Below are positions 1,096-55,815 of a stretch of DNA of 64,000 nucleotides, in pieces. The DNA comes from Azolla caroliniana. Lineage: Eukaryota; Plantae; Polypodiophyta. A model generated the notes under the pieces. The model saw nothing but the letters and a program-made list of their open reading frames with translations, did no database searches and had not been told where the DNA came from. The translations under genes and the position numbers were made by a program. Every line of letters starts with the position of its first letter. Within the stretch, counting starts at the first letter, position 1. Location: assembly GCA_043228905.1 (NCBI GenBank), contig JBHGNT010000007.1, forward strand, positions 2,604,001-2,668,000, written 5' to 3'.

Positions 1096-4000
1096 TCACT
1101 CCGGCATGGGGTGTCTTACCAGTCTGATCCTCTTCCGGCATGCATCCAGCTTGTCGGGTATCAACACTTTGGTCAGCATATCTGACCCATTCTCGGACGT
1201 GTGGATCTCCGTCAGTGCAAACTCCTGGTCATCTACTCTTTCCTGGATCCAGTGATATCTTCGCTGGATATGCTTCGTTCGGGAATGGTAGGCCGCATTC
1301 TTAGCAAGGTGGATGACACTTTGTCTGTCGCAATAGAGCCGGTATTCATCTTGTCGGATACCGAGCTCTCCGATGAAGTCCTTCATCCATAATATTTCCT
1401 TGCCAACTTCCACAGCCGCCATGTACTCTGCCTCCGTGGTTGACAATGCAACCGTCTTCGGCAGCATCGACTGCCACGAAACAGCTCCCCCTGCATATGT
1501 CATTACATACCCGGATGTAGACCGGTTGGTATCCACATCAGCCGACATGTCCGAATCGGTGAAACCGTCAAGTTGAGGTTTTCCGGAGCCGAATCGGAGA
1601 CACATATTTGAAGTGCCCTTCAAATACCGGAGTATCCATTTGACCGCGTTCCAGTGCTCCTTGTCGGGATTGCTCATAAACCGGCTCACCACTCCGACTG
1701 CGTATCCTATATCCGGTCGGGTACACACCATTGCGTACATCAAGCTCTCGACGGCAGAGGCATATAGAATCTTCATCATATCCGCCTTCTCTGCTTTCGT
1801 CTTCGGGCTTTGCTTACCGGATAACCTGCAGTTTGCCGGAAGTGTCGATCCGACCGGTTTCGCGTCTGACATGTTGAACCGGTAAAGCACCTTTGTCACA
1901 TACTTCTCCTGTGACAACCACAATTGCTTCACTGACCGGTTCCGGATAATATGCATCCTGAGCATCTGTTTTGCCGAACCCAAGTCTTTCATTGAGAAGG
2001 TCCGGTTGAGGGCCTTCTTCAGCATCCGTATTTTGGCTTGGTCCCGTCCGACGATCAACATGTCGTCCACGTACAGAAGGAGTATCAGGAAGTCGCCTCC
2101 TTCGAACTTCTTCACAAACACGCAGTGATTGGCCTGCGTCTTGTGGTACCCTTGATCGGTCATGAAGGAATCGAACTTCCGGTACCATTGTCGGGGAGCC
2201 TGCTTTAGTCCGTACAGGCTCTTCTTCAGCCGGCATACAGGTGCTCCTTCCCTTTCTCCACGAATCCTTCCGGTTGTTGCATGTAGAACTCCTCTTCAAG
2301 GTCGCCGTGAAGGAATGTCGTCTTCACGTCTAGCTGCTCTACCTCGAGGTCCATGCTTGCCGCTATACTCAGCACCGTCCGGATGGAGGTCATCTTTACT
2401 ACCGGGGCAAATATCTCGTCGAAGTCCACGCCCTTCTTCTGTTGCAACCCCTTCACCACGATCCTGGCTTTGTATCTCGGGGGGTTGCCAGCATCTCCCG
2501 GTTTCAACTTGTAGACCCACTTATTTCGGAGTGCCCGCTTCCCTTTCGGCATCTCCACCAATTCGTACGTATGGTTCTCATGCAGGGAATCCATCTCGTC
2601 CTACATGGCACTTAACCATTTTCGGCTGTGAGTGTCATCCTTTGCTTCTTCGAAGCTTTCTAACTCCCCCTCATCGGTCAGCAGAACATGCTCTGCATCC
2701 GGAAATCTTCGAGGTGCCCTTCTCTCTCTGAGAGGATATCTCCGTCTCTGGGCTTCGGTATCCGGCTCCTCTATTTACTCTTCATCTGAATCTGATTCAG
2801 GGTCTTGGCCGGTTCCGGTTTCAGCTTCCTCTACTTCTCCTTCTGCCGGTTCGATATCCTCACCGTAACCGGCTGGCTCCTCGAGTGCTAACCGATCTCT
2901 TGCCGGTTGGGTCTGTTCATTGTAGAGTCTATCCTTACCGCTCGACTCAGAGTTCATTATCTTCTTCTCCAACTCCCAGTCGGCAAGCGTCTTGTCCTCC
3001 ATGAAGATAATATCTCGGCTCCGGAATACCTTCTTTTCGACCAGGTCCCACACTCGGTAGCCAAACTCATCGTCACCGTAACCGAGGAATATGCATGGCT
3101 GGGTCTTTGGATCTAGCTTTCCTCTTTAGTCCTTAGCTACATGCACATACGCAAGACACCCGAACACCTTCAAATGTCGGTAGGATACTTCCTTACCGGT
3201 CCATACTCTCTATGGCGTGTCTCCGTCCAAGGGTACTGAGGGTGATCTATTTATCACATATGTCGCCGTCGACAATGCCTCAGCCCAAAACTTCTTGGGT
3301 AGTTTTGCATGCGCTAGCATACTCCGGACCTTCTCCATTATGGTCTGGTTCATCCTCTCGGCCAGTCCATTTAGTTCCAGCGTCTTCGGCACGGTAAATT
3401 CGAGCCGGATTCCCTTCGAGCGGTAGTACTCCTCGAACTGCCCCCGGTATTCTCCTCCGTTATCTGCTCAAACCGCCTTCAGCTTCCAGTCGATTTCTCT
3501 TTCCACTCTCGCGTGGAGCTCTTTGAAGACGGATAGCACCTGATCCTTCGTCTTCAACGGTGTGGCCCACAGCTTCCGGTTGTGGTCATCTATGAACGTC
3601 ACGAAGTACTGCGCTCCGGCATGTGATTTCGTGTCTACTTGACACACATCCGTATGCACCAACTCCAGTGATGCATTACGTCTCATCAGTGGTCTTGGTC
3701 GGAAAGAGGTCCAGTTTTGCTTACCAACCAGACAATCAGTGCACTTCTCCAAATGCACGTTCTTCAATGGAATGAGGTTGTCGTCTGCAAGCCTCTTCAT
3801 CCCCTTCTCGCTCATGTGACACAGTCTTTTGTGCCACAGCTCACCGGCAGTGTCGGATGCCACGTTCACTTCCTCCGAACATAACCGGGCATTCATGAGG
3901 TATAATGTGTTTACCTTTCGGGCCCGAGCCACAATCAGGCTCCCTTTGCTGAACTTCGTGACACCGTTCCGGATGCTACCCGTCTAGCCTTCATCATCTA

Positions 4001-5133
4001 GCCGACCGGCTGATATCAGGTTCAGTCGGAACGTGTCGAACATCCTTCAGCAACAACTTGCATCCGGTTGGTGTTGATAGCCACACGTCTCCTATGCCGA
4101 CAATTCTACATGTACCTTCATTCCCCATCCGGACACAGCCGTGATCACCAGCTGAGTAGGATGAGAAGCATTTCCGGTCCGGGGTAAGGTGGAACGACGC
4201 TCCGGAGTCTACCACCCAGGTCATCTCGTCGCCGGCAAGGTTTATCTCACTCTCCTCGGTGATGAGCATCAACTCTTCTTCACTTGCCGCGATTGTCATC
4301 GTTCCCTTCCGGTCCGGCCCCCTCCGGTCTTTGTTGTTCCGGTCCGGGGTCCGCTTCGAATCAGTACCGTCGGTCTCCTTATCTTTTCGGAAATGCCGAC
4401 AGTTCTTTTGGAAGTGTCCCGGCTTGCCGCAATAGAAGCAAGTAGGCCTCCCCCTTGACTTTGACCGTGTCCCTGACTTTTCCCGGTTCTGGGGACTACG
4501 GTTTCTGTGTCTTTCGCGTTTCGATTCAGTAAGGAGCGCTTTGGAGTCGGAGCTCGTATCCTTATCTTTCCGACGCGCCTCCTCATCCAGCAAGCTCGAC
4601 TTCACTCTTGCTAGGGATAGCCGTTTTCCTTCCGGCCCGGCGTTGCCCAAAGTGACAACCAACGTCTCCCAGCTATCCGGGAGGGAACCGAGCAGGAGTA
4701 GTGCTAGTACCTCGTCGGCGAGAGGTACTTCCAATGAAGTTGCCTGGTGGATCAGCCCCTGGAAGGCATGCATGTGCTCCGCCATGCTGGAGCCATCTTG
4801 GTACCGGAGTCTTACTAGCTTCCGGAATACCGAAACCTGATTAACAACATTTTTGTTCTGAAACATAATGCCGATCTTCTCCCAGAGCTCATGAGCCTTG
4901 CTCTCTTCATTGAAGTTGTTGTATAGGCTCATGTCGATGAAGCACCGTATGTACGTCGTTGTCTTCATGTGCATCACCTCCCATATCGCGGCGTCGATTT
5001 TGTCTGGTCTCTTGTCCCCGAACTGAACCGGCAGCCAGAGGTCTTTAACCACGAGCATGTCGCTCATCTTCGACTTTCATACTGAATAGTTGGAGCCGGT
5101 GAGCTTGAACATGCCTCCCAATGAATCGTCCAT
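1096..5133 (-). pseudogene. Copia gag-pol, broken by stops and frameshifts
   Basis: ORF fragments contain the zinc knuckle CFYCGKPGHFQKNC, protease WVVDSGAS, integrase LWHKRLCH/LVHTDV/NGLAER, RT YVDDML and RNase H SDMSAD/STTEAEY. Confidence 0.95.
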
Positions 5134-7569: not shown

Positions 7570-8640
7570 AACTAGAGGATAGCCTACTAGAGGCATTAAG
7601 AATGAAGTGGTAAGATTCTAAAATCTCAAATTTGGAATATTGCATTGCAAATGTCAACCCCTAATACGGTAAAAATGCCAAAATGTATCCAACTGCATCT
7701 TACTACTGACATGAGCCTTAGCTCTTGTAGAGCCTTAACATATTGTCAAACTCACTCACACAAGTTAAGTGTCAAGATAGCATCATGACATCATCGGCCA
7801 AGTATGAAGATATGTAAGGATACAAAGAAAATTGTGGAGGATCAATATCACTTACTTTTGAATGCGCAATATATATATAAGGTAATTCGAGAGAAGTATA
7901 ACGACGTGTTAGGCAAGCATGAAAATTGAAGTCGTACTCAAATCTCCACAAAGAAAGATGAGCACAAGTTTGATGCATTCTTTTCACATAGAGATATTTT
8001 ACTAAAAAATAGTGACCCCCCATATTAGCAAGGATACGTGATGTTTATTTGGTCAGTCAAATTTGGCGTCCTTGTGGATGATAAAAAATGTATTCCAATC
8101 TCTGTCCCCATTCCATTGTTTACTCACATTAATACCATTGTCCATGCCAATGATGCATACAACAATTACTTACCAATAGGGCCATGGCATAAAAAAATGA
8201 GACGTATGAAGGTATGCAATGAAGATTGAGTGGATCACAAGTCTCATTCACTTCTCACATGTTCAACATATAACATGATTCATAGAGATGATGGTGACTT
8301 GTTAAGTGGGCATCAACACAAATTTTTATGTGTAGTTCCTACTCTATGTTGGTGCAAGAATATCTCCTCTACCAAAGATTTATCTTGGGTTTACCCTAAT
8401 CTAGTTAATTGTTAAATGCTACATGATCTTCCCCTATGCAACTTTCACATCTTGATTGATTAACCTATTGTCAATGCCATTATGGTTTTTCTTAAAACAT
8501 TATACTTTATTGGATTTCATATCATAAAGACATCTCCATCCGGTAATGTCATAAGTTAGTACAAAGAAAAAGAGAAAATTTTCACAATGAAAATGTCTTA
8601 TTTATTTGAGATTTTATATGTGGAACATAGGTCCTACATT

Positions 8641-9829
8641 TCAAGTCCATTGGCCAGGGCCAGCATCCTCATAGGTGGAACCGGCACCAATTTGATCAAT
8701 CCACACTTTACGAGTCGATTGGGTACCCACAAGTCCACCATCGTTAGTCCAACTAATCGCATTGAGACCGATCCGTAAATTCAAAGGGGTGTCATCTGCA
8801 ACAGTGGTGGCGATGTTAGATACATCCAAGACTTTTTCACCATCAAACCAAACCTTGTAAACGCCTGTGGCACCACTTTTCCATGATGCATAGATCACAA
8901 CCCGATGCCAATCATCGGCAGACACTGTCGCTAGGTTGGGGAACACAGTGGCTGTTGCACTACAAGGTGAGCCTGTGTTCACTCGAGAGTATAGTTGATT
9001 GCCTACCAACCAAATCCGACTAGTGGGAACAAGCTTTGTACATCCAAAGTTAGCTCGAAATTGGGCCAAGATGTAGCTTTGACTTGTGAACTCCCAAGTA
9101 GGTTGAAGTCTAAAAGCAAAGCCATAGAAACCCTCGTCTCCACGACTATATACGCCATTCTTCACGACCTCTGATTGATAATCCCCATCGTAAGATGCAT
9201 CATATATTTGTATGCAACGTATTGATGTGGTTCCTTTGTAAGCCTCATTAGTCACCTCTTTCACTGACCCAAGGTTGTCCTACAATGTTGTGCGTAGATG
9301 TTTAAGGTTATCCATAAATCAATCAATCAATATAAAATCAAATAAAATGTACCATTCTACAAGGTTATAACAATCCCCACAATAATTGTAGGATGAATTT
9401 ACAATTTAACATGCAAAGTCTAATGTCTAAGGTTATCTTTTGTCCATATTCCAAATTTGACTCCAATCAAACTTATTCTTCTCTAGCACAAAGAAAAAGT
9501 AACTCACGCAAAATTATAACTTGCCCATGAGGGTATCATGGATGGGCTCATCATAGAACTAGATTCTTTAGTCTTGGCAAGGTTGAGTGTAAAATATCAC
9601 TAGAATCTTATTTTTACTTTAGACCTCCATTAGATAGCTAATTATGAGAAAGATTAAAGCACATTAATTATCATTTGTGATTGGTTTACATTACCTCTGT
9701 GATAGCATCCCAACCATTGAGGTTACCTCTATTGTGAAAGAGGACGGTTGCTTCTATCGATTGCACAACAACTATCACCACTAACGTTAGCCACATAATT
9801 GGCCCTAATCCTTGCTTTCCCATCATCAT
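8641..9829 (-). CDS. Secreted PL20 (glucuronan lyase)-like protein, 2 exons (9829-9695, 9279-8641), ~257 aa
   Basis: Exon 1 encodes MMMGKQGLGPIMWLTLVVIVVVQSIEATVLFHNRGNLNGWDAITE (signal peptide plus mature N-terminus). A GT-AG phase-0 intron spans 9694-9280. Exon 2 has SEV, GFYGFAFRL, SYILAQF, PNLATVSADDWHRVV, YKVWFDGEKV, NIATTVADD and GTQSTRKVWIDQI, colinear with my recollection of Trichoderma reesei TrGL. Confidence 0.85.
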
Positions 9830-9894: not shown

Positions 9895-9910
9895 TTTATA
9901 TATATATATT
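9895..9910 (-). promoter_or_regulatory. Putative TATA box of the PL20-like gene
   Basis: TATATATAAAG on minus, about 70 bp upstream of the ATG. Confidence 0.45.
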
Positions 9911-12900
9911 TGGCCATTGACTTTTCTAGAGATAGAGATAAAATTTTAGTATGGTGTTACAAAATATAAATTCAAAGATTTAATGTGATCTAATTTGTGT
10001 TGACATTAACCTCACTTTGTATTTCAGTTAGCTCCCACTTGTGAAGAGCCTACCACAATGTCAATCAAGTTATGTCGTGTAATGCAATTGTCTAGGTTAG
10101 AAACCTATGAACTATAACGTAACATAGACGATGTAGTTTCCTCCATAGGTGGAGTTTGGTTTCAATTATGACATAGTGGGGGATATACCTTTTCTCTCTT
10201 ATTTTACCCTCCACTAGATTGTATCATTATATGCTTTGTATACGCTTATTGGATTGATAATGGAAACTATGGTGTAGTTTTTTTTTTTTAACATGACGAT
10301 GTAGAGTGTTATTCACAAGGTTTACATTGTGATGTCCTTGTGAGCTTTAGAAACCGTTCCTAGACTTTAGCAAAGTTTCACAACATTGACTTTCTTAATC
10401 AATCACTTCTGACTTACAGATCACATTTAGTCATTATCCATTGAGTATCTGTTGCTTCATTCTCATCTACAAATAGCTTACAAATATCAAAGTTAGGAAT
10501 GGAGTAAATAAAATATTCCATGGGTCGGTTATGTTCCTTAAAATGTCTACTGATTTGCTACTCCAATTCCCAAATTTGTTGACATAATTGGTAAAGTTTT
10601 TTTATGACTCACGGAGGTTACCAGTACCACCAGTACCACTTTCTCCCAATTCTACTATTTAATATAAATTTAATTACTTTTTGATATGATAAATAAAAAT
10701 GGTTTTGAGACCAACTAACTTTAAAGGTTAGCTTACCTTCTGGGTTTCTGTTCGCTATGTGACCAGTGTTATTAGCTCCATCTAGTTAACAATGAAAAAG
10801 GATAATCTGAAAATAAAAAATAACTTGCATATGATGAAATCAACCCAATTTTTGGTGCTCTCTTTTCTCTACATGTGAAAGGAACTCTTCTTTAACTTAA
10901 TGGGCAAATGATGAGAATTGAATTTACTTCATCCGTTGGGGAAAAAAGGCATTGAACTGTTCAACTATACATACAAAATCCTCTACTCTACGTATTGTAC
11001 ATTACATAATATGCTTGGTTTATTCACCATGATGAAATAATATTAATAAGCACTCCATCACATTGTGTCGTGTACTTAATATTTTTGTTAATTTTAGTAG
11101 GAGTTAGTGTTTGGGAAATGTTTCCACTAAGAGGATACTATGAGAATCTACAAACTTAATGGATTTTGGTTTAAAAATTATTACGAGTTGTGCTCCTTTG
11201 ATAATTAGATTTAAGCTCAAATTTGAATTCCTAACCGTACCATTAATTTCTCAAACTATTCTAATAATTTGTAGGAATTAAGGCATATTTGAGCTAAAGG
11301 AAAATATCCTCATCAGTGGAAAGAAACATCCACCCATCCAAGGTTTTTGAAAATGTCACAATGGTGAATAGAAAACTTTTACCCGTCAACATATATAAAG
11401 GATTGCTTATGTTTGTCATCCATGATGTACATATAACATTGTAAAGGACATGTCCAAAACAATTATATTTCAACTTGTAGGTTTGTAGTTATACTAGTGA
11501 TTAATAAGGATAATTCTTGTGATTTAGATACGCTATTAATGCATAAGTAGATTAAAATTTTATTTTATATTTGATTTTTATTTAATGAAAATAGCTTGCA
11601 CGAGATGTTGACTCATTATAAGGTGCAACTTTTGTTTTATTTTTTTGTTGATTTGGTTGGAGGGTTGGAATTTTCCACATTGTCAATTTATATCAAAGCT
11701 ATATGCATGAAATTTCATTGATGCATTACGCGATCATTTGTTGGTCGCACATGTACACACACGAGATAAAGATTTATGTCAAAGTACTATGTTAAAGATT
11801 TGGAAAATTGCATGCACGCACACGAAAGCAACAACAAGTCTTATGCAAAAAAATTAGGAAAGATGCATTGCATTGAATAATGAAGGAAAAGATGATATCT
11901 TATTATGAAAGATGAGAAATTGTCTTAAAAAATAGAGCACGACAAGGCTTGGAAAGATTTTTGTAATCAAGTTGAATGGGACCAATCTTCTCCATGGCTA
12001 ATGAAACTTTAAAGCATAGTCTCTACTTCATTCCTATCATTCGTTGCATCCGTGGTGATGTTTGTGATCATTTGTACACCAAATGAGATCAAATTTGAAG
12101 AGGTGTTATGTGAAGTAAATGGTGTAAAACTTCGAAGAGTAAGAAGAATACAAGAATTGTATCATTGCCAACAGCAATGAATATGTCATGAAATTTGTGC
12201 ACAATATCATATTTCTATAATATTATGTGAATTTATGTTTCCTTTGTGATGGATTATATCATCCTTCTATAACGTTGAGTAAATTTTATAATCATTTTTA
12301 TTATAGCAAGCTATAATATTATGTGAATTTATGAAAATGTCTTATATCTGTGCTTTGGACAATAGGCAAAAAAGTCTAGAATGTCGATAGCTACCAAGTA
12401 GAAATTTGTCATTCCAATGAGATTGACAAGCTTTAAGAAAGTATATGTCCCATGAAATGGTAAGTTGCACACATCAAATCCTAAGGGTGCTCCTTGATTA
12501 AAAATTGAAGCTCTAAAAACTAAATTGATTGAATCTTATTGCTATACACGACGTGAAATCTTCCATGCCTATAACATTTGCACCAGCATGCAATGACTTG
12601 TGCTCGACCATTATTATTCTTGATCAATGGATGGATATATGAAGATGACTATCCAAGTTATAACCTTAACTTTATGCGTTTTGCGTGGCATATATCCTCA
12701 TGTCAAAATAATCAACTTGAAGCCATTTCTACTAAGATCATGACCATTTCAAGTTTTCTAAAGTAAGTTCTCCAAGTAAACGAGGTTCTAATTTACACAC
12801 CTAGCACATGAGATACCAAAGCATCTCATTCCAATCAACATGTCCTATTTCAAATTGGACAAAGGAAATTCATTAGAGATATCTATTGAAAACTTTCTAA

Positions 12901-14397: not shown

Positions 14398-15096
14398 TCA
14401 TCGAAACCTCAACATGCTGCTTCTCGACTTTGCTTCACATCTGTGTGTATTATTATCATCATCATCAGAGGAGGAGGAGGAGGAGGAGGCGGCGGAAGGG
14501 GAAGCAATTGCAAAGCTTGAGTTTGTAGATTGTACAGAAACGCTGATTTCCTTCCTCTTTTTGTGGTTCACTTTCTTCGGCTGAGAAGAAGAATGAACTT
14601 GCTTATCGCCCCTGCATTCACCGTGAATTACATATGGCTCTCGCTCATTATGCAGATCTCTGATTTCTGAGCCCAGACCGTCAGAAACCCTGATTTCTTG
14701 CTCCACGGTCTCAGGATCCCCAGTTTCAGTGTGCGGAGATGTGCGAGATCTGAGACAAGACAATGTAACCGACTGAGAAGTAGCACCACACTTGAATCGT
14801 TTGCGTCTAAATCGAAGGGATGCAGCATGTGGATGCACATCTTTCTCCTCGGCGAAGATCTGGAGAGATTTCCGAGTTGAGATGGAGCTCGACAGGAGAA
14901 TGTGAGAAGTGACATCCTGAAGAGGAGACCGTGGGAAGAATCCCTGAGGCAAAGGGCTTCTTCCATTTCTCTGACAACAATCCATCGACGAGCCCTGAGT
15001 CTGGTACAATGGAAGGAACGGGCAAATGTTCTCCTTTCCAATCTCCATATCCATATCGACATCCATAGCCATAGCCATAGCCATAGCCATCTTCAT
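14398..15096 (-). CDS. UVI4/OSD1(GIGAS)-like APC/C inhibitor, paralogue 1 (232 aa, intronless)
   Basis: Motifs GKENICP, RSPLPQGFFPRSPLQDVT, RKRFK, KKRK and C-terminal SSMLRFR. Confidence 0.8.
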   Translation of the reverse strand: MKMAMAMAMAMDVDMDMEIGKENICPFLPLYQTQGSSMDCCQRNGRSPLPQGFFPRSPLQDVTSHILLSSSISTRKSLQIFAEEKDVHPHAASLRFRRKRFKCGATSQSVTLSCLRSRTSPHTETGDPETVEQEIRVSDGLGSEIRDLHNEREPYVIHGECRGDKQVHSSSQPKKVNHKKRKEISVSVQSTNSSFAIASPSAASSSSSSSDDDDNNTHRCEAKSRSSMLRFR

Positions 15097-15296
15097 CCTT
15101 ATTCTCTTGTCTGCCTCTGTGTGTTTGTTGCTGCAGGCTGTTAGAGATACAGAGACAGAGACATAGACGGAGCTACCGGAGCAGTGAGCTGCTGCTTATT
15201 CCTCCATATCTGCTGCTTATTACAATTTACGCCATAGCTGCCTACTTATTATTCACTCCATAGCTGCTGCTCTGTGAGTGATGTAGCAGAAAGAAA

Positions 15297-15363
15297 GCGC
15301 GAAAAGGCGTTTCCTTCTCCTTCCCTGTTTCTCTTTCTGTGGTCCAAATTTTGAAATTCAAAA
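15297..15363 (-). promoter_or_regulatory. E2F site plus CHR-like palindrome, paralogue 1
   Basis: GCGCGAAA at 15297-15304 (TTTCGCGC on the gene strand) and TTTTGAAATTCAAAA at 15349-15363. Confidence 0.75.
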
Positions 15364-15506
15364 GTCGAAAGTTTGTCCGCGAGATCTACTCTTGCACACT
15401 AAACGCTACTAATATAATAAATGCTCCAATATACCATTTCATGCCTATTTTGGTAGTTACCCCTAAATTTGGAGCCATTTTTGGACATGTAATGATGTAT
15501 CACCGG

Positions 15507-15528
15507 TATGTGTATGTGTATGTGTGTA

Positions 15529-15621
<93 letters not shown>

Positions 15622-15895
15622 GTGTCCGTGTACGTGTATGTGTCCGTGTATGTGCATGTGTGTGTGTGTGTGTGTATTTGTATTTGTATCTGTATCTATA
15701 TTTGTATTTGTATCTGTATCTGTATCTATATCTATATCTATATCTATATCTATATCTATATCTATATCTATATGTGTATGTGAATGTGTACATGTACGTG
15801 TATGTGTATGTGTATGTGCATGTGTCTGTGTAGATGTATGTGTAGGTGTCGGTGTCAGTGTCAGTGTCTATGTACTTGTACATGTATATGTGTGT
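15507..15895. repeat. Compound microsatellite (TGTATG)n/(TG)n/(TATATC)n
   Basis: Read directly. It produces spurious low-complexity ORFs. Confidence 0.95.
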
Positions 15896-17289
15896 AAATA
15901 AACTATCTATACTAGTGTTTTTGAAGGTGCCTCTGGTCTACAAGCATGTTCCATAGTCACGTGATCTTATCGAGTCACTTGATGGTAACAATACTTCTTG
16001 CTCTGTTGTCTTTCACATAGCGGTAGCATTCGCCACGAATAAATTCACACTATTTATCATGCGCTCAATTATGATCAAACAATCTGCAAAATGTACACTA
16101 TGTATAGCAACTTTATGAGTAGATATACCTACAAAACAAAATGCCTCAGTAGGTGGCATGAGCTATTTAATGAACCGCAATTTAGTGATAGTATCCCAAA
16201 TTTCTCTATATGTGCTGCATAGAACTGAGGCTGGCATGGTGCATTGGCAAAGAATAAATAAGGCAATCGATGCATTACTCTACATAAATATCGAAGTTAA
16301 TTTGAACATTGAGATTGAGCAAATAAACATAAAGGTCATTAATAAACCCCAAGGAATGCTTGATTATCAATGAAAGCAAATTTAAATGGTTTGAACTCTA
16401 CACATCTATAACCTCAAAGGGCTAAGACTTCATTGCAACAATGTTCTAAGGTCGAGATTATCTCATGTAATCCTCCAAGGGCACGTTATAGAAAGACCCC
16501 AACCTACAATTCCAAGATAGAGATGAATGGTGCAAGCATTAGTCATTTCAAAATTAGACAATATGTTTTTCTAAGGACACTAACCAACATTTGGAACAAT
16601 GCTATAAGGAAAATTGTTTCATCAAGAATATGAAGTGTGACAATCAAACAACTCATGTGCCTTCGACATAACAACGAACATTCCCAATACAAAAGGTGTG
16701 ACAAACACACAACTCAAATTGCATCCCATTCATTGAATGATTGAAAAGGGGTAGTTTGGATATTATGAAAACCACCAAGCAATATGAGCAAGTAAAACTA
16801 TGCCTTTACGCCTAGGATTCAATGAGGTTGTTTCTAGATTACAAAAAACTACTGCAATTGATGACCTACACATAATTCTCCAATATAGCAAGAATTACCC
16901 AAGATATAACATTTCCATATCAATATGGGTGTAGGATTCAAATGATGGGTAGATCGGATAATGCCAAATGACAAAATATGTGATCGATAATGCCAAGGAC
17001 ATACAAGAAGAGTGTTCGTGTCAAAACCCACAATATGATTAGGCAATGGATGAAGCAAGACATGAAAACACATTGATTTGTTATCATTGTATTTGATTCA
17101 TTTGGATTGAAATTCCTCAGGTTAGGTTCGAATGTGTGTACAGAATAATTTTGGAGCAGATGAAATGCTCCATGAATGGAATCAAGAGTCATGGAGAAGA
17201 TGACCAATACATAGAATGAGACAGAGACAGAGACAGAGACAGAGAGTGATGCAAATAAAGAATTCCGTTGACAGGACGAAATTCAGATT

Positions 17290-17985
17290 TCAGCGGAACT
17301 TCAAAACACTGCTTCTTACTTTTGCTCCAGATCTCAGCATGGTATTGCTCGAAGACGCCATAGGTGAGCTTGAATTTGCAGATTGTACAGAACCAGTGAG
17401 ACGCTTCCTCTTCTTGCTGATCATCTTCATCTGTGGCGGAGTAGAAGGTGAAATTTTGTCCAATGCTTCTTGATCAATTAGATCGGATGAAGCGGATGAA
17501 GGCATCACCAGCAAAGAAGAAGAAGAAGAAGCGGCTTCACCATCTGGTCTGCGTTCTGTGTGAATTATATCCAGTTCACTACGACGATGTAGACACGGCA
17601 TAACCTCACTTCCATTCTGCAGAGATGAACATAGCTTGACATCTGAGCACGAGGACAGGGAATCTGCATCAGGCTTGAAGCGTTTGCCACTCGATCTAAG
17701 TGAAGGAGCACTCGAGTCCAATCTAAGGTCATCAGAGGAGCTCTGAAGGCAGTGCAGACACGAAGCTTCAGCGTTCAGAAGGGAGGGCGGGTCAGGGAAG
17801 AGAACATGATGAGTGATGTCTTGGAGAGGAGATCGGGGGAATCCATACGGCAAAGGGCTTCTCCTTCGTCTTCTCTCGAAAGATTGCTTTGATAGGCTCT
17901 GAGACTGACACAATTGAGCGAAGGGGCAGATGTTCTCCTTTCCGAGATCCATGGCCATGGTGGGAACAGGCACATCCATCTTCAT
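17290..17985 (-). CDS. UVI4/OSD1-like APC/C inhibitor, paralogue 2 (~231 aa)
   Basis: MKMDVPVPTMAMDLGKENICP, RSPLPYGFPRSPLQDITHH, KRFK, KKRK and tail SSVLKFR. The start was placed at 17985 by alignment to the paralogues. Confidence 0.8.
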   Translation of the reverse strand: MKMDVPVPTMAMDLGKENICPFAQLCQSQSLSKQSFERRRRRSPLPYGFPRSPLQDITHHVLFPDPPSLLNAEASCLHCLQSSSDDLRLDSSAPSLRSSGKRFKPDADSLSSCSDVKLCSSLQNGSEVMPCLHRRSELDIIHTERRPDGEAASSSSSLLVMPSSASSDLIDQEALDKISPSTPPQMKMISKKRKRLTGSVQSANSSSPMASSSNTMLRSGAKVRSSVLKFR

Positions 17986-18158
17986 GCTCTTTCTGGGATT
18001 GACAGAATGTGGGGGAGAATTGAGAAGGCGAGGGAAGAAGAAGAAGATGATTATGATGAAGAAGAAAACAGATACAGAGAAATGGCGGGGTGGGGGAGGG
18101 ATCGAAGGACTGTGCAGAGAGGGATGGAGGAGCTGCTGATAAAATAGAGAAGGAAGAA

Positions 18159-18221
18159 GCGCGAAAGCAGAGCAGAGTTTTCGTTTGGATTCATTTTTTT
18201 TGGAGGTTTTGAAATTCAAAA
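18159..18221 (-). promoter_or_regulatory. E2F site plus CHR-like palindrome, paralogue 2
   Basis: GCGCGAAA at 18159-18166 and TTTTGAAATTCAAAA at 18207-18221. Confidence 0.75.
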
Positions 18222-18449
18222 CCAAAAGAAAGAAACACCACATTTGGATGAATTAGAGTACATACATACATGCATACATTAACATACATAAATATGAGTG
18301 TAAGTATGTACATACATAAGTAGTTCTGCTTCAAAATTTGGACATCATTTCTTACATACATACATACATACACATATACATGCATACATAAATGTGAGGA
18401 CAAAGTATGTAAGTAGTTCTACCTCCAAATTTGGACACCTTTTCCTCGA

Positions 18450-20767: not shown

Positions 20768-21394
20768 TTAGCGAAACTTCAAGACATTGCTTCTTGGCTT
20801 TGCTTCAGATCTCGGCGTATTGTTGTTAGCATTTGAGGAAGCTACTATGGAAAAGCTTGAATTTGCCGATTTCACAGAGGAACTAATTTGCTTCCTTTTC
20901 GTACTCAACACATTTTCTTTTACATCAGAAGATGGAGATGAAGAATCCCGCGTAAGTGCAGAAGAAGAAGAAGATTGACTCAGGTTGCTGGTATATCCTT
21001 TAATTACTTTATGTTCGCTTTCACGATCCCTGCAAGAACTAATCCTAATTCCAGTCTGCAAAGACGGGAAGGGTTCGAGACACGTACACGAGCTTGACTG
21101 AGGAGAGTCTATGGACTTGAATCGCTTGATTCCACACTGCGAAGAAATTGCTTGCGTGATCGGATGCTTCTCATCAGAGAAGATCTGCAGACAATTCAGA
21201 GCGACGGGACTGGTAAGAATGTGATGAGTGATATCTTGGAGAGGAGATCGCGGGAATCCGTGGGGCAACGGACTCCTTCTGCTGCTGTGGGGCGACTCCA
21301 TTGGAATGCTCTGAAGATGAGTCTTGGATTGGGGCAAATGAGACAACGGGCAGATGTTCTCTTTTCCGAGGTCCATCGCCACAGCTGCAGACAT
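20768..21394 (-). CDS. UVI4/OSD1-like APC/C inhibitor, paralogue 3 (208 aa)
   Basis: AMDLGKENICP, RSPLPHGFPRSPLQDITHH, KRFK, KRK and tail SNVLKFR. Confidence 0.8.
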   Translation of the reverse strand: MSAAVAMDLGKENICPLSHLPQSKTHLQSIPMESPHSSRRSPLPHGFPRSPLQDITHHILTSPVALNCLQIFSDEKHPITQAISSQCGIKRFKSIDSPQSSSCTCLEPFPSLQTGIRISSCRDRESEHKVIKGYTSNLSQSSSSSALTRDSSSPSSDVKENVLSTKRKQISSSVKSANSSFSIVASSNANNNTPRSEAKPRSNVLKFR

Positions 21395-21561
21395 ATTTCT
21401 TCTACAGCTCTCTCCCTCGCTCTCTCTCTCTCTGACAATTGTGAGAGAAGAAGAGAAATGCAGAGAAGGAGAGAGAGTGTATATGTGTGAGCTGCTGCTG
21501 CTTAGATTTCCATGGCTGCCTGCACAGAGAAAGCTCCTGTTGAAATAGATGAAGAAAGAAG

Positions 21562-21596
21562 GCGCGAAAAACGTTCTGGTGGTTCGAAATTCAAAA
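21562..21596 (-). promoter_or_regulatory. E2F site plus CHR-like element, paralogue 3
   Basis: GCGCGAAA at 21562-21569 and TTCGAAATTCAAAA at 21583-21596. Confidence 0.75.
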
Positions 21597-24500
21597 AGAA
21601 AAGAGAACCAATAAGAAGAAGAAGAAGAAAAATGAATGTGTTTTTCTTCTTCGTTTAATCAAAAAAATAAAAATAAAAATATGTATTAACTGCAGACACT
21701 TTTGGGGGGTTAGTTGCCTCTAAATTTGGAGGCATTTTTGGACACCAAATAAAAAGAGCCCCCAAACAAATTTCACCAAAAAAATGATTCAAATGGCTCT
21801 TTTCTCTCCAGTTCATAAATTATAATCGTAAAGACGATGAATATACATATGTATATGTACATAATAACTGAGACCATCAAACACAACTCTGGTTTCACAC
21901 ACCAAGACCGTGTCCCGGGTTTTTGTCATCGTAGTTGCAAAACTGATTTCCTGGTCGTAGTTGCAAACTTGCAAGTTGCAAGTAATTGAGACGCATGTTT
22001 TTGTTCTTGATTTGCGTGCTAGACGTCTTATTGAACCATTCTTGCTTGTTCCTCCCACCAGCCCACGACTGGACTCCAACCGGCTTATGACAACTTGAAA
22101 AGAAATTGCAGTAATCTTGGATAAGAAACCTACTGCAATGAAATGGGATCCCCATAAACATACCACTAGATTGAGCACTAAACAAAGTGAATTCATATCC
22201 AATGAAAGTCTTTGTTGATTCTTCGACTGCTAGAAATAAATGATGGAAATTTATCATTATGTTTTCGACCATTTTGAATGTAGGGTCATTGTTTTCACAT
22301 CCTTTACTCGATGATGATTAATACCCACCACTACTACTCACATTGCCCACAATAGAGTGTGTGCTTGCCCAATCTTGTTGTTCTGGTGTGGCATGTACTA
22401 AAGGAGAAAAACATGATAATGTTAGGTTCCAATTATCATGAGAAGTAAAAAAATGATAGAACAAAGTAATAACAATCGATAGCTCAAACGGTGTGTTAGG
22501 CACTTTTATAACAACAAAAGGGTTTGGGGTTTGGTACCCATTAAAGACAAACTCAAAGAAATAGAAAAGCTCTAATGAGTGATGACAATTGAAGTGTGTG
22601 CGGCATGCACGTTTGATCAAAGCACACATCCTTGCAAAGGTGAGGATATGCCACACATTTACATACATATACAAACATTAGTAATAACACACATATTTGT
22701 GACAATCCTATCTTCCGTCTTTCAAAACCCTTGGGAATCCCACTCAAACTCACACCCCTATCGCAAATTCTTGCGACATTGCAACAATCTAACACGAGGA
22801 AATTCAATTTTTTATGGCATTGACCACACAATATATTACACGTGCACGTAGATTGGATTGATGCATGAGCAAGCCATCACAATCACCAAAAGTGTTCTCT
22901 TATATATTCAATCATTGATTATTATTATAATACTATAGGAAAGCAAGATTATACATAGTGACACAATGTACATGCATGTATACACGATTATAGACAATTA
23001 TGCTACATTGTGGCTTGCTTACACATGCTTATCTAAAATTTACAGAAATATATTCTAGTAGACATTATTCATATCTTATGATGTTCGTATTAACTCACAC
23101 TGACTACTTTACTCACAATGTTATCCATTTAAACTAATATACTTGACAAACATAGCCACACTCAAGAGCAAACGAGTTATTATCCTTCAACATAATTCAA
23201 AAACATTTGAATGATCGATTGAGATTCGTAAATGATAAGCTTTGGAAACCCTACAACTAATAAATGCATGTATCTATTCAAACATTTGGAGTTTGAGTAT
23301 AGTTCACACACAATCTTTATTTTTCATATTGAGACAATGACATTCAAGCACTTGAACCAATTTGAATAAGATATGGTTTATTGTTTCCATGTGTTATGGG
23401 CGAGTTTGGAGGTTCGTTATGAGCCAATGTTTATCAACATTGTTTATAACAACGATTTCCCAGTTTCTTTTTTATGTGACATTTGAATCCATCGCCTTGT
23501 ACCATATGTCATCTAGTTTTACTATACCTCCTCTTGTATTATAAAACCAAGAATCAACTCCATTGCAAACCTTCACCCGCAATAATTGATGTTTCGCATG
23601 AATAATTTCAAAATAATATCAATTATTTTATTGATAAGGTGATCATTTAGGAATAAGGCCAAGTGCTTGCCCTTCTCCATGCTAAATTCTAATATGTAAT
23701 TACTAATAACATAAACATCTTGCATGATTATTGAGGTATTGTATCCTAGTCTAAGGTTGGGACATGTATATAAACCTTACCTTCTACATACACTGATGTG
23801 GTAGACATGATTGACCTTCGGTTTTGATGATTGGTTTCCCTCTAGATTTGAAATTTACATTGGTCTCTTACATGCTACCATAACTCGAAACAATATTTCA
23901 ACTCAGCTCTGGAATTCCCTTATTGTTCAATGTTTCCCATGTTTTGCTCGTCTATATTCCAATGGATGAAGTATTAAAGCATTGCCATGTGGCTAAAATA
24001 AATTCGTGTCTTTCCAAGCCAATTGCTCTTTAAAAGAAAGGGAGCGTGTGTAAATCTAATGTCAAAATATGATAAATAATCTCTTTTAACTGCACTTCAA
24101 GTTGAGAGAAATGAAAGACCTAAATGGCGTGAATTTTTGCTCTTTTTGGATAATCAATGTTCTTGCCATTGTTTACCAAGGCCTCCATTTGAAGTGTATA
24201 ACACTTCTCCTTTTTACCTTCTCATGTTGGTCGAGCATATCCATAAAAAGTTACAAGGAATTCGAAACCCAACAAATTTTTCCATCTCTTTGCCCTTGAT
24301 GGCTCCATTAAATTCTATACTTACTAACTTTTTGGTGTCTCTACATACACAATATATATATATATATATACATATATGTATAAATGTAGATGAGATTATG
24401 ATTGTTGGAACATGTATAAATATTGATATTATATGCATCCAAAATGTGACCACTTTCTTTTATCAAACACTTATTAACTAGTAGTGGTAACAATTCATTG

Positions 24501-25450: not shown

Positions 25451-25609
25451 CAAGCAAGCTCACTCACACAGCCTCAGCCACTCTCTCTCTCTCTCTCTCT
25501 CTCACTCTCTCTGTGTATCTTCTTTCATCCTGTGCTTCTTCAATACTCGCCGAAACATCTTCTTCTCAAATTCTCTTCACATTAGCCTTGCTCACCAGTC
25601 CAATTGAAG

Positions 25610-26305
25610 ATGAGAAATCCCATGGCTATGGACCTCGGCAAGGAGAACATCTCCCCTTTCACTCATCTGTATCAGATTCAGACCCGGAGTCTTTCGGTTA
25701 AGTCGTGCCAGAGCGGCAGCAGCAGCAGCAGCAGAAGAAGAAGCCCTTTGCCTCGGGGTTTCCCACGATCTCCTCTCCAAGACATTACTCATCACATTCT
25801 TTCCCCCTATTCCAGCCCCATCTCTTTCAATTCTCTGCAAATCTTACCCTGTGGCCAATTTTTGGACACTCAATCAACTCAGTTTGGATCCAGAAACAAG
25901 CGGTTCAAGTCTGATGCTGCGTCTCAGTCTCTCCGGCTGTGCACATCGTCACAGACCGAAATTGAGATCTCTCAGGGCGTGGATCCAAAACTGAGTGCTT
26001 CTCACGCTGTTGACCCAGAAATTAGTGCAATGGATTCTCTGGATTGCGAAAGAAAGGTAGATGCGATCCGCGTGGAATGCAGTCAGAATAATGGAGCTTC
26101 TTCATCTGCACAGTTCGACTCTTCTTCTGTTGAAAATGGCGAAGCGTTGCTTACGCTTCCTTCTCCACAGCAGAAGACCTCGAGCAAGAAGAGGAAGCAA
26201 ATAATGGTTTCTGTACTACCTACGAGTTCAAGCATTTCTACGGAATCTGTGAACACAGACAGGTCTAAAACAAAAGCAAGGAGCAGTATTATGAAGTTTC
26301 GATAG
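25610..26305 (+). CDS. UVI4/OSD1-like APC/C inhibitor, paralogue 4 (~231 aa, inverted)
   Basis: MAMDLGKENISP, RSPLPRGFPRSPLQDITHH, KRFK, KKRK and tail SSIMKFR. The first ATG is at 25610. Confidence 0.8.
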   Translation: MRNPMAMDLGKENISPFTHLYQIQTRSLSVKSCQSGSSSSSRRRSPLPRGFPRSPLQDITHHILSPYSSPISFNSLQILPCGQFLDTQSTQFGSRNKRFKSDAASQSLRLCTSSQTEIEISQGVDPKLSASHAVDPEISAMDSLDCERKVDAIRVECSQNNGASSSAQFDSSSVENGEALLTLPSPQQKTSSKKRKQIMVSVLPTSSSISTESVNTDRSKTKARSSIMKFR

Positions 26306-28534: not shown

Positions 28535-29221
28535 TCTCATGTGTATCATACAATTTAGGACATAAAAGAGTAGTACTGGGATAAACTAATCAACATTCAG
28601 TTAATGCCTACCGGAATCCCGAAGAGAGGTGAGCGGGTGTTTTCGGAAATGTTTTAGCCGAGGTTTAAGGGAAGGGAAACACGATAAAACCTATAGCTAG
28701 CTAGCAAGCTATTGGTAATGCTAGCAAATTGCCCAAGAACTACGTTTAATGTCTTTTTCCGCGACCGAAGATCCGTTTTTTCTTTATTCCCCAGCATGCC
28801 CTTGGCCACTATCTGGCAAGGCAAATCGCATGATTGGCATCATCTACCTTCTTCTTTTTTATTAGATCGGACTCGGGATCTAAGCAATTTCCTGCACATT
28901 TCTCCTCTCTTTCCAAAAATGACCTAGGGCCATGGCCCTGCCAAAATAAGGAGAAACTCAGGGGCATTTTTGGGAAATAGAGGAAATTGTCGAAGCAACT
29001 GTTGTACAGGCCGAACAAAAAACACGAAGGAAAAATGCGAAAGGCTTTGGCAAAAATATGTAAGGAGAACTCAGGGGCATTTCGGGAAATAGAGGAAACC
29101 GTCGAAGGAATTAACGAAGGAAAATACATATGTATGTATGCGAAAGGCTTTCATTTTTGAAAGAACAGAGAGGCAGCGACAGAGGAGACTGACTGTGGAG
29201 GGAAGAGGCACTCGAGAAGCT

Positions 29222-32200
29222 ATGGAGGATGAATGGGTTCCTTCTACACCTTCGTCTTCTTCCTCATCTCCCCCACCATTTAGCCTGCGGATTGTTTCCA
29301 TGGATTACTACATGGCTCCCCCTGTCCCTGAATTGGATGCTTGCTATTCTTCTCTACAAGGTCAGCTTACTCCCCCCCCCCCCCCCCCCCCCCCCTCTCT
29401 TCCTACCCTACCATGTCTTTCCTCACAAATCTCTGCAACAAGACCAAACAGGAATTTTTTTTATATTTTTTATATTTTTTATCCATCATTTCTTTACTTG
29501 ATCCTATTTTATTTTAATATTCAGGACAACCCATCGCAGAGGTTCCAGTTGTGAGAATATTTGGACCTACCATTTCTGGTCAAAAGATGTGCTTACATCT
29601 ACACAAGGTTAGCTCTGATCTCTCTTTTCTTGAAGGATACTTTATCTTATTAATTTGAAGTTATCTGTTTTCTCTGTTTTTCTAGTACAGAATTTTGTTG
29701 AACGTTTCTCTTTGTTACACGAACATTTCTGTTCTAGTTGAGTGGTTCTCTTCTTTTAGTTGAAGATGTCACTCTGTTTTTTTTTGAATATTTCTCTTAG
29801 CAAGAGACTATTACGAACAGCCTGTGAGCTCATCCTAATATTTAGCTAGATTCATAAGATTTGTATGAATAACTGGACAGAGATCAAGTTTTACGAACAA
29901 AATTCCTCACATTTTTAGTTCCTACGATCTTAATAAAGCGATTTTCTATAAGGTCAGTGATATTCCTCACAAATTTGGTACTTAAAGCTCAAATGAGGAG
30001 GTTACATGAAGGTAGAAAGTTACCAGATTTCAGGGTAGACGAGTGAAATTGCTCACATTTTTGTACATCAAAGCTCAATTGAAGATACATTCTATGAATA
30101 TCATCTGTCTTCTGGGTAAAAACAGTGGAATTCCTCAGATTTTGCTACTTATAAACTCATTAAGCATGAAGATGGAAGCCTTCTTACCTAATTAATCGTA
30201 TTAACAATGATATTTAACTCATATGTCTTCCTTAATGGAGTGTTTCCATCATGAAAAAATCTCATATCACAACTAATCAACTACTCGAACTGATTCATGA
30301 TGAACCGTTTAACCATATGGGAACAGAACTTCAATTCGGATATGTTATGTTAGCAATTGGATTCACATGTCTCATTTCATGGTATGGATACTCGTTGATA
30401 AACTTGAAAGAAATAAACTGAAACAGGCAGAAAGAGAAGAAAGGTTGGCTTCCACTGAAGTGATCAATATACAAGAAATCTGAAGTCTCTTCCATCAAGA
30501 TTCTTACAGAGGATCAACAATATTAAGCTTATTTGTTACATGGAATTATTTCCTTTCAATGGAAATAAGAAAAATCAACACCTTAGAATCGTGACATCTT
30601 TAACAACCTGTTTTTTCCAATATATGTATTCAGATTGTCCTCTCTAGAAAAAAGAGAGAAAAATTACCTTCCCATATTCTTTCTTTTCCAACATGTGTAT
30701 AGAAGCCCTGTAGTTTATACATATCTCTTCTTCTCCAGAAAAAAGAGAGTTTTTTTCTCTACTGTAGGCTTTATTCAATATGCATGTACACACACACACA
30801 TAACCCCATTTTTTCCAGAAGAAAAATAGAGAAACTTTTTGTTACAGGCACTTCCATTAGTGTGTCTGTTCTGCCATATAACTGACTACATGTCTCATAA
30901 AATCGAGTGTTACATCTCCTTTGGTCCAGAAAACGAGAGTTTTTTCTCTTCTGCAGGCTTTCTTCAATATATATATATATATTACAACCCTGTCATTTCT
31001 AAAAGAAAAGAAGAGAAACGTTTTGTGACAGACAACTTCCATCAGTATGTCTAGGCTGCCATATAACTAAGCTGCACATCTCATAAAGTGGAATGACAAA
31101 GTAGGTATAGCACAGCATAGATGAATGATTGAAGTACATCATGAACCACACCTATGGTCGATGCACTGGAGAATGAAGATACTCGATCTGGTTTTCTAGA
31201 GTTTATATTATCTCCAGGTTATGACCTATATTTTGTATGGTGATCTTGCTTTCTGCAGGCTTTTCCCTACTTATATGTACCATACGATGAAGATCTGCCT
31301 CAGGATACCACTGCAGGTAGGATTTCTTTGTGTCTTTTTCAAGATATGAACATTCTACTTTTTCATGTAACTAATATTTGACATTCACAAACAGCTTTCG
31401 GATTTGTTCGAAGCTTAGCAGCTGCAATTGAAAAGGCACTCAAGGTAATGCATTCTTGATTGTACATATTTCAATACCTGCTGTAGAGTTTGGCCATAGC
31501 CCTATACATTATCTTCTTTGCCCCTAGGGGAAGTTTTCATGTGGATAAATAGGCTGACAACCCTTGTTGTAGACTTTGTGATCTTTTGATGCTATTCTGA
31601 TAGCTTCACTTGTTAATATTGCAGCTTGCAAGCACTGTTGGTGCAAAACGACAACATGTATATAGTTGTAGTCTTGTCCGAGGAAAGAAGTTTTATGGAT
31701 ATCACAGTGACGAACAACTCTTTGTCAAGATAATGCTGTATGCAAAGATTCATGCCAAATATAAGCCATATTTATTATGAGTACTAGATGCATTTACAAT
31801 GCAGTGACCTGTTAAAATTGACCAGAAAAGAAAAATACTAGTTTTAAGAGAAGCTCAAGACATATTTAACAATTTCCTTTACCATTTTATACTTCAAAAA
31901 ATTAGGTTGATTTGCATTTCCAAGCACTAGACTGCATGAGAAGAAATGGTTGGAATGATACAAAAGAAAGTGAGATGTGATATAAAATTTGCCATTAATG
32001 ATGTGGGAGGAGGTTCAGAGTTATGCATATGATGCTAGAGTGCGTTTTATGTCTTGGTTTCTCAGTGAATGCTCAACATGCTTGAATGTACCCTTGGTGT
32101 CTCTCTCAGGATCCATGTTTTGCCTATATTTATCGCCTCCATCTTCTGTGATATATGGAGAGAGGAAAGATTATCAGTCACACAGTACAAACTTTGGAGT

Positions 32201-41200: not shown

Positions 41201-41480
41201 CGCCTGGAAAAGGAGTTCAAGCATTTGCAAGCAGTATGTATACATTTTCACATTAGCTATTAAATCCAATGAAAATGGATCAACAATCCGTGTCATGAAT
41301 TTTAGCTCTAATAATAATATTCTTCTTCAGATATGCAAGCATTGTGGAGGTGGGGATGAAATTGATATTGAAGAGGGAGTTGGCTGCATTTCTCTTGCTT
41401 GCAAGGTCTTCTTTGAGCGCAGTAAAGTCCAGAAAGAATGTAAAACAACAGGGGCTGTCAAGGATCGAATTAGGCTATAG
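29222..41480 (+). CDS. REV3: DNA polymerase zeta catalytic subunit, 21 exons, ~1997 aa
   Basis: Exons: 29222-29360, 29525-29607, 31259-31316, 31395-31444, 31625-31737, 32600-32642, 32973-33041, 33124-33397, 33481-33572, 33661-34041, 35371-36808, 36901-37556, 37640-37785, 37862-38450, 38555-38701, 38971-39246, 39415-39522, 39671-39876, 39997-40300, 40562-41233, 41331-41480. All introns are GT-AG and the total is 5994 nt in frame. Motifs: [59 protein letters not shown] and the C-terminal CysA/CysB clusters. Confidence 0.95.
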
Positions 41481-54470: not shown

Positions 54471-55815
54471 GCTGAAAGTACAAGCAAAAGAGCACTTGGG
54501 CAAGCATGATTTAGACCAAAACACTCCATTGTGGATCATTTGGTCACATTGAGAGTAATCATGGAAGGGAGTTGACTACAAGGAAAAACACTTTATTGTT
54601 GTTTTGTTGATTTAAAGACAGCTTTTGATACTGTACCATGAAGTGAGCTTTGGAATAGAATGGTAGAGATTGACATGCCATTAGAGTACCGAGTTGCTGT
54701 TGCATGCCTATATGAACAAGTTAAATGCCAACTAAAAATGGATAGTGGATTCTCAAAGCACTTTTTAAGTAACATGGGGATCAAGCAAGGATGTCCACTA
54801 TCACCCACACTCTTTGGCTTATGTATTGATAAATTAGAAGAAGTGGTGAATAAAGTTGCAAGAGAAGAAGGATTGAATGCCCTCAACTTGATGCAACATG
54901 TTATCTTATTGCTTCTATATGTAGATGATGTGGTACTCTTCTCATATGTTGACAGTATGCAAAATTTACTTGTGGTATTAGAAGAATTTTCCCATAGTAG
55001 TGGACTAGTAGTGAATGTGGAGAAAACAAAAATGACGGTAGTACAAACCATCCAACCTCATTATTACCCTATGCTCACATATAGAGGTGAACATACAAAA
55101 TTTGTTCAAAGCTTTAAATATATTGGTATTGATGTACCCGACACAAATAAATGGAGGGCATGCTTTGATTCTAGGCTCCAAGCCGATTGGAAATTGTATT
55201 ACCTTTTGGAGAACCAATGCAACCAAAGTGATACTTGTGGATGGGACGTAAAACTAATGTTGTTCAATGCCATGGTAACTCAAGTATTGCTTTATGGAGT
55301 AGAAGTATGGGGTGGCACCATCTCTCTTAATGCATGGAATGAGATTCAGAAAATTCAAAGATGTTTTTAAGGAGGCAATTAGGAGTTAAATGCACTACCT
55401 CTTACCAAGTTATGATATTGGAAACAGGTGTTCGACCCATAGAACTATTGGCACTCCAAAGAGTATATAAATACATTACAAAAGTCAAGAATATGCGGAA
55501 TCATCGATTACTACATTTTGCTTGGAATGTTGGATGTAAACTACAAAAGAATCATAAAAGTAAGATTCTCTCATCCGTTTGGGTTGTTGACATAAGGAAA
55601 TGGTTTAGAAGATGGGGTTTGGATGATCTTTTAGACCTTTCGGGCAATGATATGCAATATGTAATGATTAAGGAAAGATTGGTGGAATGATTAAGATGAA
55701 GTGGGAAGATGCTAAGAGGACAAAGCTAGATTACTAATTGCAAATGTCAACCCTGAATGTTGGTCTCAATATAAAGCAATAATGCCTATTGATTGTATCC
55801 AACCTTATCTCATTG
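54471..55815 (+). mobile_element. LINE 3' part (reverse transcriptase)
   Basis: CCFVDLKTAFDTV, GIKQGCPLSPTLF, LLYVDDVV, FKYIG and LLYGVEVWG. Confidence 0.9.

Follow-up and report, generated by a model that had tools for sequence, protein, structure and literature searches.

The window analysed here is a stretch of 64,000 nucleotides from the fern Azolla caroliniana (contig JBHGNT010000007.1, positions 2,604,001 to 2,668,000), in which a gene derived from the PL20 glucuronan lyases, hereafter the window copy, occupies positions 8641-9829 of the minus strand. Its two exons give a spliced product of 257 aa with no internal stop, in agreement with the intact open reading frame described by an earlier interpretation of the DNA (the sequence-only reading). 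The coding part of exon 1 (9695..9829, minus strand; 45 codons, phase 0) comprises a predicted signal peptide and the first 18 mature residues, and is covered by spliced contigs of sequencing runs X12, X6 and X14, while exon 2 (8641..9279, minus strand; 212 codons and a TGA stop) encodes the bulk of the PL20 beta-jelly-roll. The exons are separated by a phase 0, GT-AG intron of 415 nt with 31% GC (9280..9694, minus strand), delimited by the spliced contigs and 92% identical in an orthologous locus (L050). At the joint 9278/9694, contigs skip exactly 415 nt, with ends CT..AC on the plus strand, in three of four runs (X12, X6 and X14, from three studies and organisms A, C and E), whose labelling as RNA is a guess, the joint itself having spliceosomal ends. 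Contigs of the fourth run (X11, probably DNA) read through the intron, and the joint is absent from the listed joints of four DNA runs. The proposed GT-AG intron and its 9694/9280 junction are thus confirmed by splicing.

The N-terminus of the product is hydrophobic (Kyte-Doolittle peak of 3.06, residues 11-21), and the hydrophobic stretch ends at IEA/TVLFHN, a junction that is the same in the aligned moss and fern homologues. From hydropathy and alignment with homologues, a signal peptide is predicted at residues 1-27 (9749..9829, minus strand), with a likely cleavage between IEA and TVL; judged by its hydropathy, the product would be secreted. A TATAAA motif located 66 nt 5' of the ATG (9895..9900, minus strand) had been taken as a TATA-like box; the motif is present, but it constitutes weak evidence, as 83 copies occur in the window and the one at 9900-9895 is the end of a TA run. 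The longest spliced contig starts at 9856. On the other side of the gene, an AATAAA motif lies in the 3' UTR (8601..8606, minus strand), and contigs of the spliced runs end at 8534-8540.

A Copia element with gag and reverse transcriptase domains recognised by Pfam (1096-5076, minus strand) confirms the plant TE announced beside the gene, and a LINE-like endonuclease (weak Pfam match) and other degraded retroelement ORFs are found on the plus strand at 45561-46544, 48680-52179, 54642-55370 and 59129-63171. A high-copy, MITE-like repeat lies at 10136-10281, about 300 nt 5' of the window copy, with a depth of 1400-2300 against 16-27 in four DNA runs; joints suggest that it is absent from this site in organism E. 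Four divergent ORFs, at 14398-15195, 17290-18252 and 20768-21658 on the minus strand and 25586-26305 on the plus strand, share a C-terminal L/M-K/R-F-R tail and two motifs, RSPLQDIT and a DLGKENICP-like one, and presumably resemble the UVI4/OSD1 inhibitors of the APC/C. They are paralogous and may reflect a local family expansion in the fern. The ORFs of the sequence-only reading are thus present, but their UVI4-like label comes from motifs, Pfam matching none of the four. A long compound block of dinucleotide and hexanucleotide microsatellites (15300-15930) separates two of them. Further on, REV3 (DNA polymerase zeta) extends from about 29200 to 41263 on the plus strand, its identification being secured by database matches: the best named matches of its last exon are Adiantum (64%) and Ceratopteris (62%), followed by Taxus (61%) and angiosperms. 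Since these best matches are ferns, and since the window copy groups with Ceratopteris in the PL20 tree (99/97), the host is a fern, and the surprise expressed at a PL20 gene in relation to seed plants does not apply.

A nuclear gene under purifying selection

The whole stretch, or part of it, is contained in 20 runs, which come from 10 studies, out of a list of 23; 8 were examined. DNA of the window copy is present in six related organisms at a depth equal to that of its flanks; in organisms A, D and E, the gene with its intron and both flanks is spanned by single contigs, and it is also covered in B and F. In the independent run X2, the contig bearing it has a depth of 17.9, and neighbouring contigs as far out as 18 kb have depths of 11-20. 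Its GC3 (0.40) falls within the range of four host ORFs (0.26-0.49), far from the 0.96 of a bacterial homologue, and tblastn found a single PL20 copy in the window. As a side observation, run X12, whose organism code is that of the likely source, departs from the window at some 3% of positions; X6 carries a different code yet matches it fully in the pieces compared, a discrepancy that may reflect mislabelled samples, hybrids or homeologues.

Comparison with the orthologous locus L050 reveals 15 synonymous and 4 non-synonymous differences (dN/dS 0.08, p 6e-7). Exon 2 differs from run X14 by 14 synonymous and 9 non-synonymous codons (26 of the 27 differences of the exon-2 region being listed), and from run X12 by 13 and 2 codons, respectively. 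The gene is therefore maintained under purifying selection.

A contaminant, a chimeric contig or a decaying pseudogene is hardly credible under these conditions. In its favour, no single contig or long read reaches from the gene to its nearest plant neighbour, contigs being broken at repeats; against it stand the depth in X2, the single contigs of A, D and E together with the coverage in B and F, the splicing in three studies, the host-like GC3 and, for a pseudogene, the dN/dS of 0.08. The window copy is a genuine nuclear, intron-containing and spliced gene of its host, as the sequence-only reading had argued when it set contamination aside.

Fold and active site of the encoded protein

Exon 2 matches PF14099 with an E-value of 3.8e-48 (164.6 bits, cut-off 29.9), and its only sequence match in the PDB is 2ZZJ, the glucuronan lyase TrGL of T. 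reesei (E 1.3e-59). An AF2 model of exon 2, built on a 74-row alignment, reaches a pLDDT of 94.7 and is predicted to fold as a beta-jelly-roll superposable on 2ZZJ (TM 0.96; Z 33.1, with an rmsd of 1.1 over 211 residues); the second-ranked structure comes at Z 17.7, hydrolases of GH131 and GH16 have the same fold at Z 14-15, and a search of the ESM Atlas returned fungal PL20 clusters only. The assignment to PL20 proposed from the sequence is thus sound, provided that the gene counts as derived from the family and not as an active member of it. Compared with TrGL, the window copy has 47-48% identity and keeps E55, Q91 and W204, as well as the Asp at position 222, which binds calcium in TrGL (PMC3764139); it differs by R51D, H53Q, Y200N, D206N, I93R, M111R and N202I, by a shortened acidic lid loop, and by being a plant gene with an intron. 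Cip1 of T. reesei (3ZYP) also has a lyase-like jelly-roll (Z 16.3 to the model) and lacks convincing lyase activity (PMC3764139), but it belongs to a separate family, with 15-18% identity.

The catalytic residues of TrGL are R51, H53, E55, Q91, Y200 and D206, as listed in PMC7601620, which cites the structure paper and from which their roles are taken second-hand. In jelly-roll lyases that proceed by syn elimination, a tyrosine acts as sole base and acid (PMC11920209). According to the alignment with 2ZZJ, the window copy carries D78, Q80, E82, Q118, N218 and N224 at these six positions, only the Glu and the Gln being kept. The motif R51-x-H53-x-E55 is replaced by D78-x-Q80-x-E82 (9169..9183, minus strand), and Y200-A-N202-S-W-H205-D206 by N218-A-I220-S-W-T223-N224 (8743..8763, minus strand). 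The family alignment further places I115 where the family has Asn, Q118 at the retained Q91, and R120 at the family I93 (9055..9072, minus strand), and R133 (9016..9018, minus strand) where a Met is found in all 238 family rows. In the cleft, W222 (TrGL W204) and R144 are retained, and R120 and R133 are two new arginines. None of the listed differences between orthologues (L050, X14, X12) changes a diagnostic residue; N224 and R133 are kept through codon changes, in run X12 for the latter.

These replacements have no counterpart in the family rows scored. Conservation was scored on 238 rows, obtained from 271 by removing 4 rows of the divergent clade and 29 distant ones, and not de-duplicated: H53 and M111 are found in 238 rows, Y200 in 237, R51 and I93 in 236, and D206 in 234, and the residues of the window copy at R51, H53, N88, I93, M111, Y200, N202 and D206 occur in none of them. 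The window copy alters 9 of 46 near-invariant columns, against 0 in Ceratopteris, Ceratodon, Riccia and Oleiharenicola, and an intact PL20 copy of the host only lacks 3 exon-1 columns. The changes affect 4 of the 5 near-invariant residues listed for TrGL but 5 of the 41 other columns (Fisher p 0.0035), and 7 of 17 polar columns compared with 2 of 29 scaffold-type ones (p 0.008, for a grouping chosen post hoc). As judged from these alignments, the catalytic residues are selectively replaced while the scaffold is kept. With four of the six TrGL-listed residues lost, the window copy is probably inactive as a glucuronan lyase; the sequence-only reading had not spotted this replacement. Another deviation was noticed with the clade of P0085, P0093, P0096 and P0122, which includes a Candidatus Didemnitutus protein: 29 of the 238 rows retain H53, Q91 and Y200 but have a Met at E55 and an Asp at R196, and perhaps represent a PL20 subfamily with another specificity.

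Intact paralogue and origin of the plant PL20 genes

The host has a second PL20 copy (P0002/P0107/P0108, locus L029), 66-67% identical to the window copy and 84% to the Ceratopteris protein, which harbours all six TrGL-listed residues. Its intron acceptor precedes EHYG at the same phase-0 site, so both paralogues share the intron position. In the three spliced runs, loose contig ends read DSINQ joined to EHYGT, which we interpret as the spliced intact copy, and both fern copies therefore occur in the same samples. Contig depths of the intact and window copies in these runs are 210 vs 12, 512 vs 4-10 and 109 vs 24, although contig depth cannot rank genes. The paralogues diverge by a dS of 1.16 and a dN of 0.25, so the duplication is old. 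Within the fern clade (99/97), the window copy has a stem branch of 0.99 and the intact pair one of 0.064, and the window copy is placed as sister to the intact copy of its host with a support of 94/53 only. No further protein of the divergent type was found among the 33 sequences placed in the tree out of 209 matches in a 50%-identity library. P0105 (139 aa), a member of the divergent cluster, ends in unrelated residues, which a contig end, a frameshift or an assembly error may explain.

Homologues were found in the fern Ceratopteris (61% to exon 2), the moss Ceratodon (57%) and the liverwort Riccia. These intact proteins of seed-free plants (KAH7281604.1, KAG0558699.1 and KAL2628671.1, respectively, and L029/P0002/P0108 of the host) share family and clade with the window copy, but they retain all six TrGL-listed residues and are annotated only as hypothetical protein or polysaccharide lyase. 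No algal or seed-plant name appears among 104 matches, nor among 120 listed of 544, most rows being unnamed; as the REV3 search illustrates, the database is rich in seed-plant proteins, and Adiantum, also represented in it, has no PL20 among the matches listed. In GTDB, a search for the exact pattern recovered 26 loci, namely 24 of Myxococcota, one of Opitutaceae (Oleiharenicola, 79% to Ceratopteris) and a distant one. This near confinement of the close GTDB homologues (L002-L025) to Myxococcota, which are predators of microbes, fits an attack on microbial glucuronan. The nearest named microbial relative is the protein of Oleiharenicola sp. Vm1 (WP_415910647.1), 80% identical to the intact copy of the host and included with the plants in a 97/93 clade; in contrast to the window copy, it is intronless, with a GC3 of 0.96 and an intact active site. 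Inspected by eye, the genes around it form no obvious glycan-utilisation cluster.

Two unrooted trees, a FastTree of 271 rows and an IQ-TREE mixture-model tree of 71 hand-picked rows (200 being omitted, including distant long branches), agree with each other; two unnamed rows were counted as plant and six as fungal by tree position alone. One clade (99/97) unites the window copy with Ceratopteris and the intact copy of the host, another (97/93) contains all plant rows and three Opitutaceae-type rows, and the fungi form their own clade without plants (99/85), the plant rows lying among those of bacteria and fungi. The presence of the family in Ceratopteris, Ceratodon and Riccia indicates that the transfer is likely ancient and not private to the host genome: land-plant PL20 genes would likely stem from an old microbial acquisition, in one event followed by losses or in two, and a bacterial donor is favoured by these comparisons. 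The candidate horizontal transfer holds as regards an integrated gene of likely microbial origin, but not as a lineage-specific event, as orthologues exist in a fern, a moss and a liverwort. Nor is a "fungal-type" gene demonstrated: the Penicillium row compared is 74% identical to the intact copy, against 80% for Oleiharenicola, and in the best tree plants lie outside the fungal clade and do not nest in it, even if a sister relation to fungi is not rejected (a clade of plants and fungi without Opitutaceae is 10.5 log units worse, AU p 0.339).

Instead of one early acquisition with losses, bryophytes and ferns may owe their genes to two transfers, with an Opitutaceae-like donor for the ferns; alternatively, the gene of Opitutaceae may itself come from plants. 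These scenarios together fall somewhat short of an even chance. The maximum likelihood tree groups ferns with Opitutaceae (82/84) and sets bryophytes apart (84/59), Ceratopteris is closer to Oleiharenicola (76%) than to the moss (73%) or the liverwort (67%), and the bacterial sister is rare, Verrucomicrobia providing 1 of the 26 GTDB loci against 24 from Myxococcota. On the other hand, the trees are unrooted, and a plants-only clade, which the AU test does not reject (p 0.483), costs a mere 0.76 log-likelihood units.

The sequence-only reading had taken the gene for a fungal-type one, possibly at work in defence or in symbiosis with Mucoromycota fungi; on this view, the window copy itself would be a functional glucuronan lyase derived from fungi. 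Such a role is improbable. The PF14099 match, the TM of 0.96 to TrGL, the retention of E55, Q91, W204 and the calcium Asp, the occurrence of glucuronan in Mucorales walls (PMC7601620) and the unrejected clade of plants and fungi (p-AU 0.339) speak for it, but H53Q and Y200N affect positions invariant in the family, and the best tree sets plants apart from fungi (97/93, 99/85). An action against Mucorales would suit the intact sister better than the window copy.

Possible functions of the window copy

Taken together, the window copy is likely a secreted, disarmed pseudo-lyase of PL20 fold, paralogous to an intact, putative glucuronan lyase. As far as sequences can tell, it combines the features of a pseudoenzyme: loss of catalytic residues, a scaffold that is kept, purifying selection and a residue-intact paralogue. 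Our preferred reading, to which we give a probability of roughly 0.58, is that it would act as a lectin, sensor or decoy with affinity for an acidic glycan or for a protein, and would be unable to perform His/Tyr beta-elimination. Early land plants would have gained a glucuronan lyase from microbes, and a duplication in the fern lineage would have left one copy with the His/Tyr beta-elimination machinery. This intact sister, once secreted, would cut microbial beta-1,4-glucuronan of walls or exopolysaccharide in the apoplast, while the window copy, having lost Tyr and His, kept Q118, E82, W222 and R144 and gained R120 and R133, would bind its target at the plant-microbe interface without cutting it, the target being an acidic glycan or some protein directed against the enzyme. 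Its ligand may not be glucuronan, since three cationic or aromatic contacts are lost (R51, H53 and H205).

Secreted paralogues that keep the scaffold and lose the catalytic residues are known among plant and pathogen pseudo-CAZymes, as in the GH18-derived XIP inhibitors, chitinase-like lectins and the decoy PsXLP1 of Phytophthora. These differ from the window copy in having other folds and in deriving from native enzymes, not from horizontally gained ones.

Alternatively, the remodelled cleft (D78, E82, Q118, R120 and R133) may run a different reaction or cleave another polyuronide. The substitutions are radical, lie in clusters and have since been conserved from one organism to another, and hydrolases with this fold exist in GH131 and GH16 (Z 14-15). 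The absence of Tyr or His at the known catalytic positions, a fold that resembles TrGL (Z 33) much more than it does any hydrolase, and a residue set unmatched in any family member among 267 rows make this neo-enzyme rather unlikely. A GH16-like hydrolase acting through D-x-Q-x-E was also considered and set low, the catalytic residues of GH16 being on another strand. New chemistry is nevertheless conceivable because some jelly-roll lyases use other catalysts, such as the Lys of Aly36B (a reference title in PMC11920209). Moreover, Cip1 and the viral lyase vAL-1 have a cleft-floor Arg where TrGL has a Met (PMC3764139), which may, in our opinion, correspond to the change from M111 to R133.

Returning to the binding reading, Marchantia may indirectly support the idea that the family faces microbes: Mp4g01700, a core gene tied to PL20 by its IPR025975 annotation, is given as "up" 1 and 3 days into infection by Phytophthora and also figures in the Colletotrichum table, with noisy replicates (PMC12890914 supplement). 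Glucuronan itself occurs in bacteria and in Mucorales (PMC7601620).

Other microbial genes are known in seed-free plants, for example GH88 (PMC12890914), Tma12 and SHC (PMC6786969), aerolysin-like and PAD genes (PMC9477723) and a fungal FB lectin (PMC12513842). As proposed for PL20, these are old transfers, patchily distributed in mosses, liverworts and ferns, linked to defence and sometimes duplicated, but the parts of these sources that were available describe no duplicate losing catalysis under purifying selection. Literature searches, with large HGT catalogues outside their scope, yielded no paper on PL20 in plants. PL20 terms were not found in the main texts, as far as available, of PMC12448838, PMC6786969, PMC9477723 and PMC12513842, nor in the supplementary files obtained for PMC12513842 (one small file), PMC11906373, PMC11228847 and PMC6786969, although the list of 1,809 HGT families (PMC12513842 Supplementary Data 8-11) may include the family. 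Microbe-to-plant transfer of CAZymes is thus a known theme, of which the PL20 case is apparently undescribed.

What would such a pair of genes mean for seed-free plants? In mosses, liverworts and ferns, the intact copies suggest an activity in defence or symbiosis that has so far received no study, since glucuronan is a microbial polymer and plants had no known glucuronan lyases in the searches made. A broader and doubtful proposal is that seed-free plants possess an undescribed, microbe-derived system cutting glucuronan in the apoplast (PL20, perhaps together with GH88, which is co-distributed), that seed plants have lost it, and that one fern lineage made its duplicate a non-catalytic glycan receptor or decoy; if true, a horizontally gained enzyme would have been re-tooled as a plant lectin managing microbial partners. 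The window copy is a natural experiment on which residues of the PL20 cleft can be swapped while the fold stays, and the pseudoenzyme and its intact sister form a directly testable pair. It may represent a new glycan-binding protein, and would illustrate how a transferred gene is re-tooled rather than merely kept.
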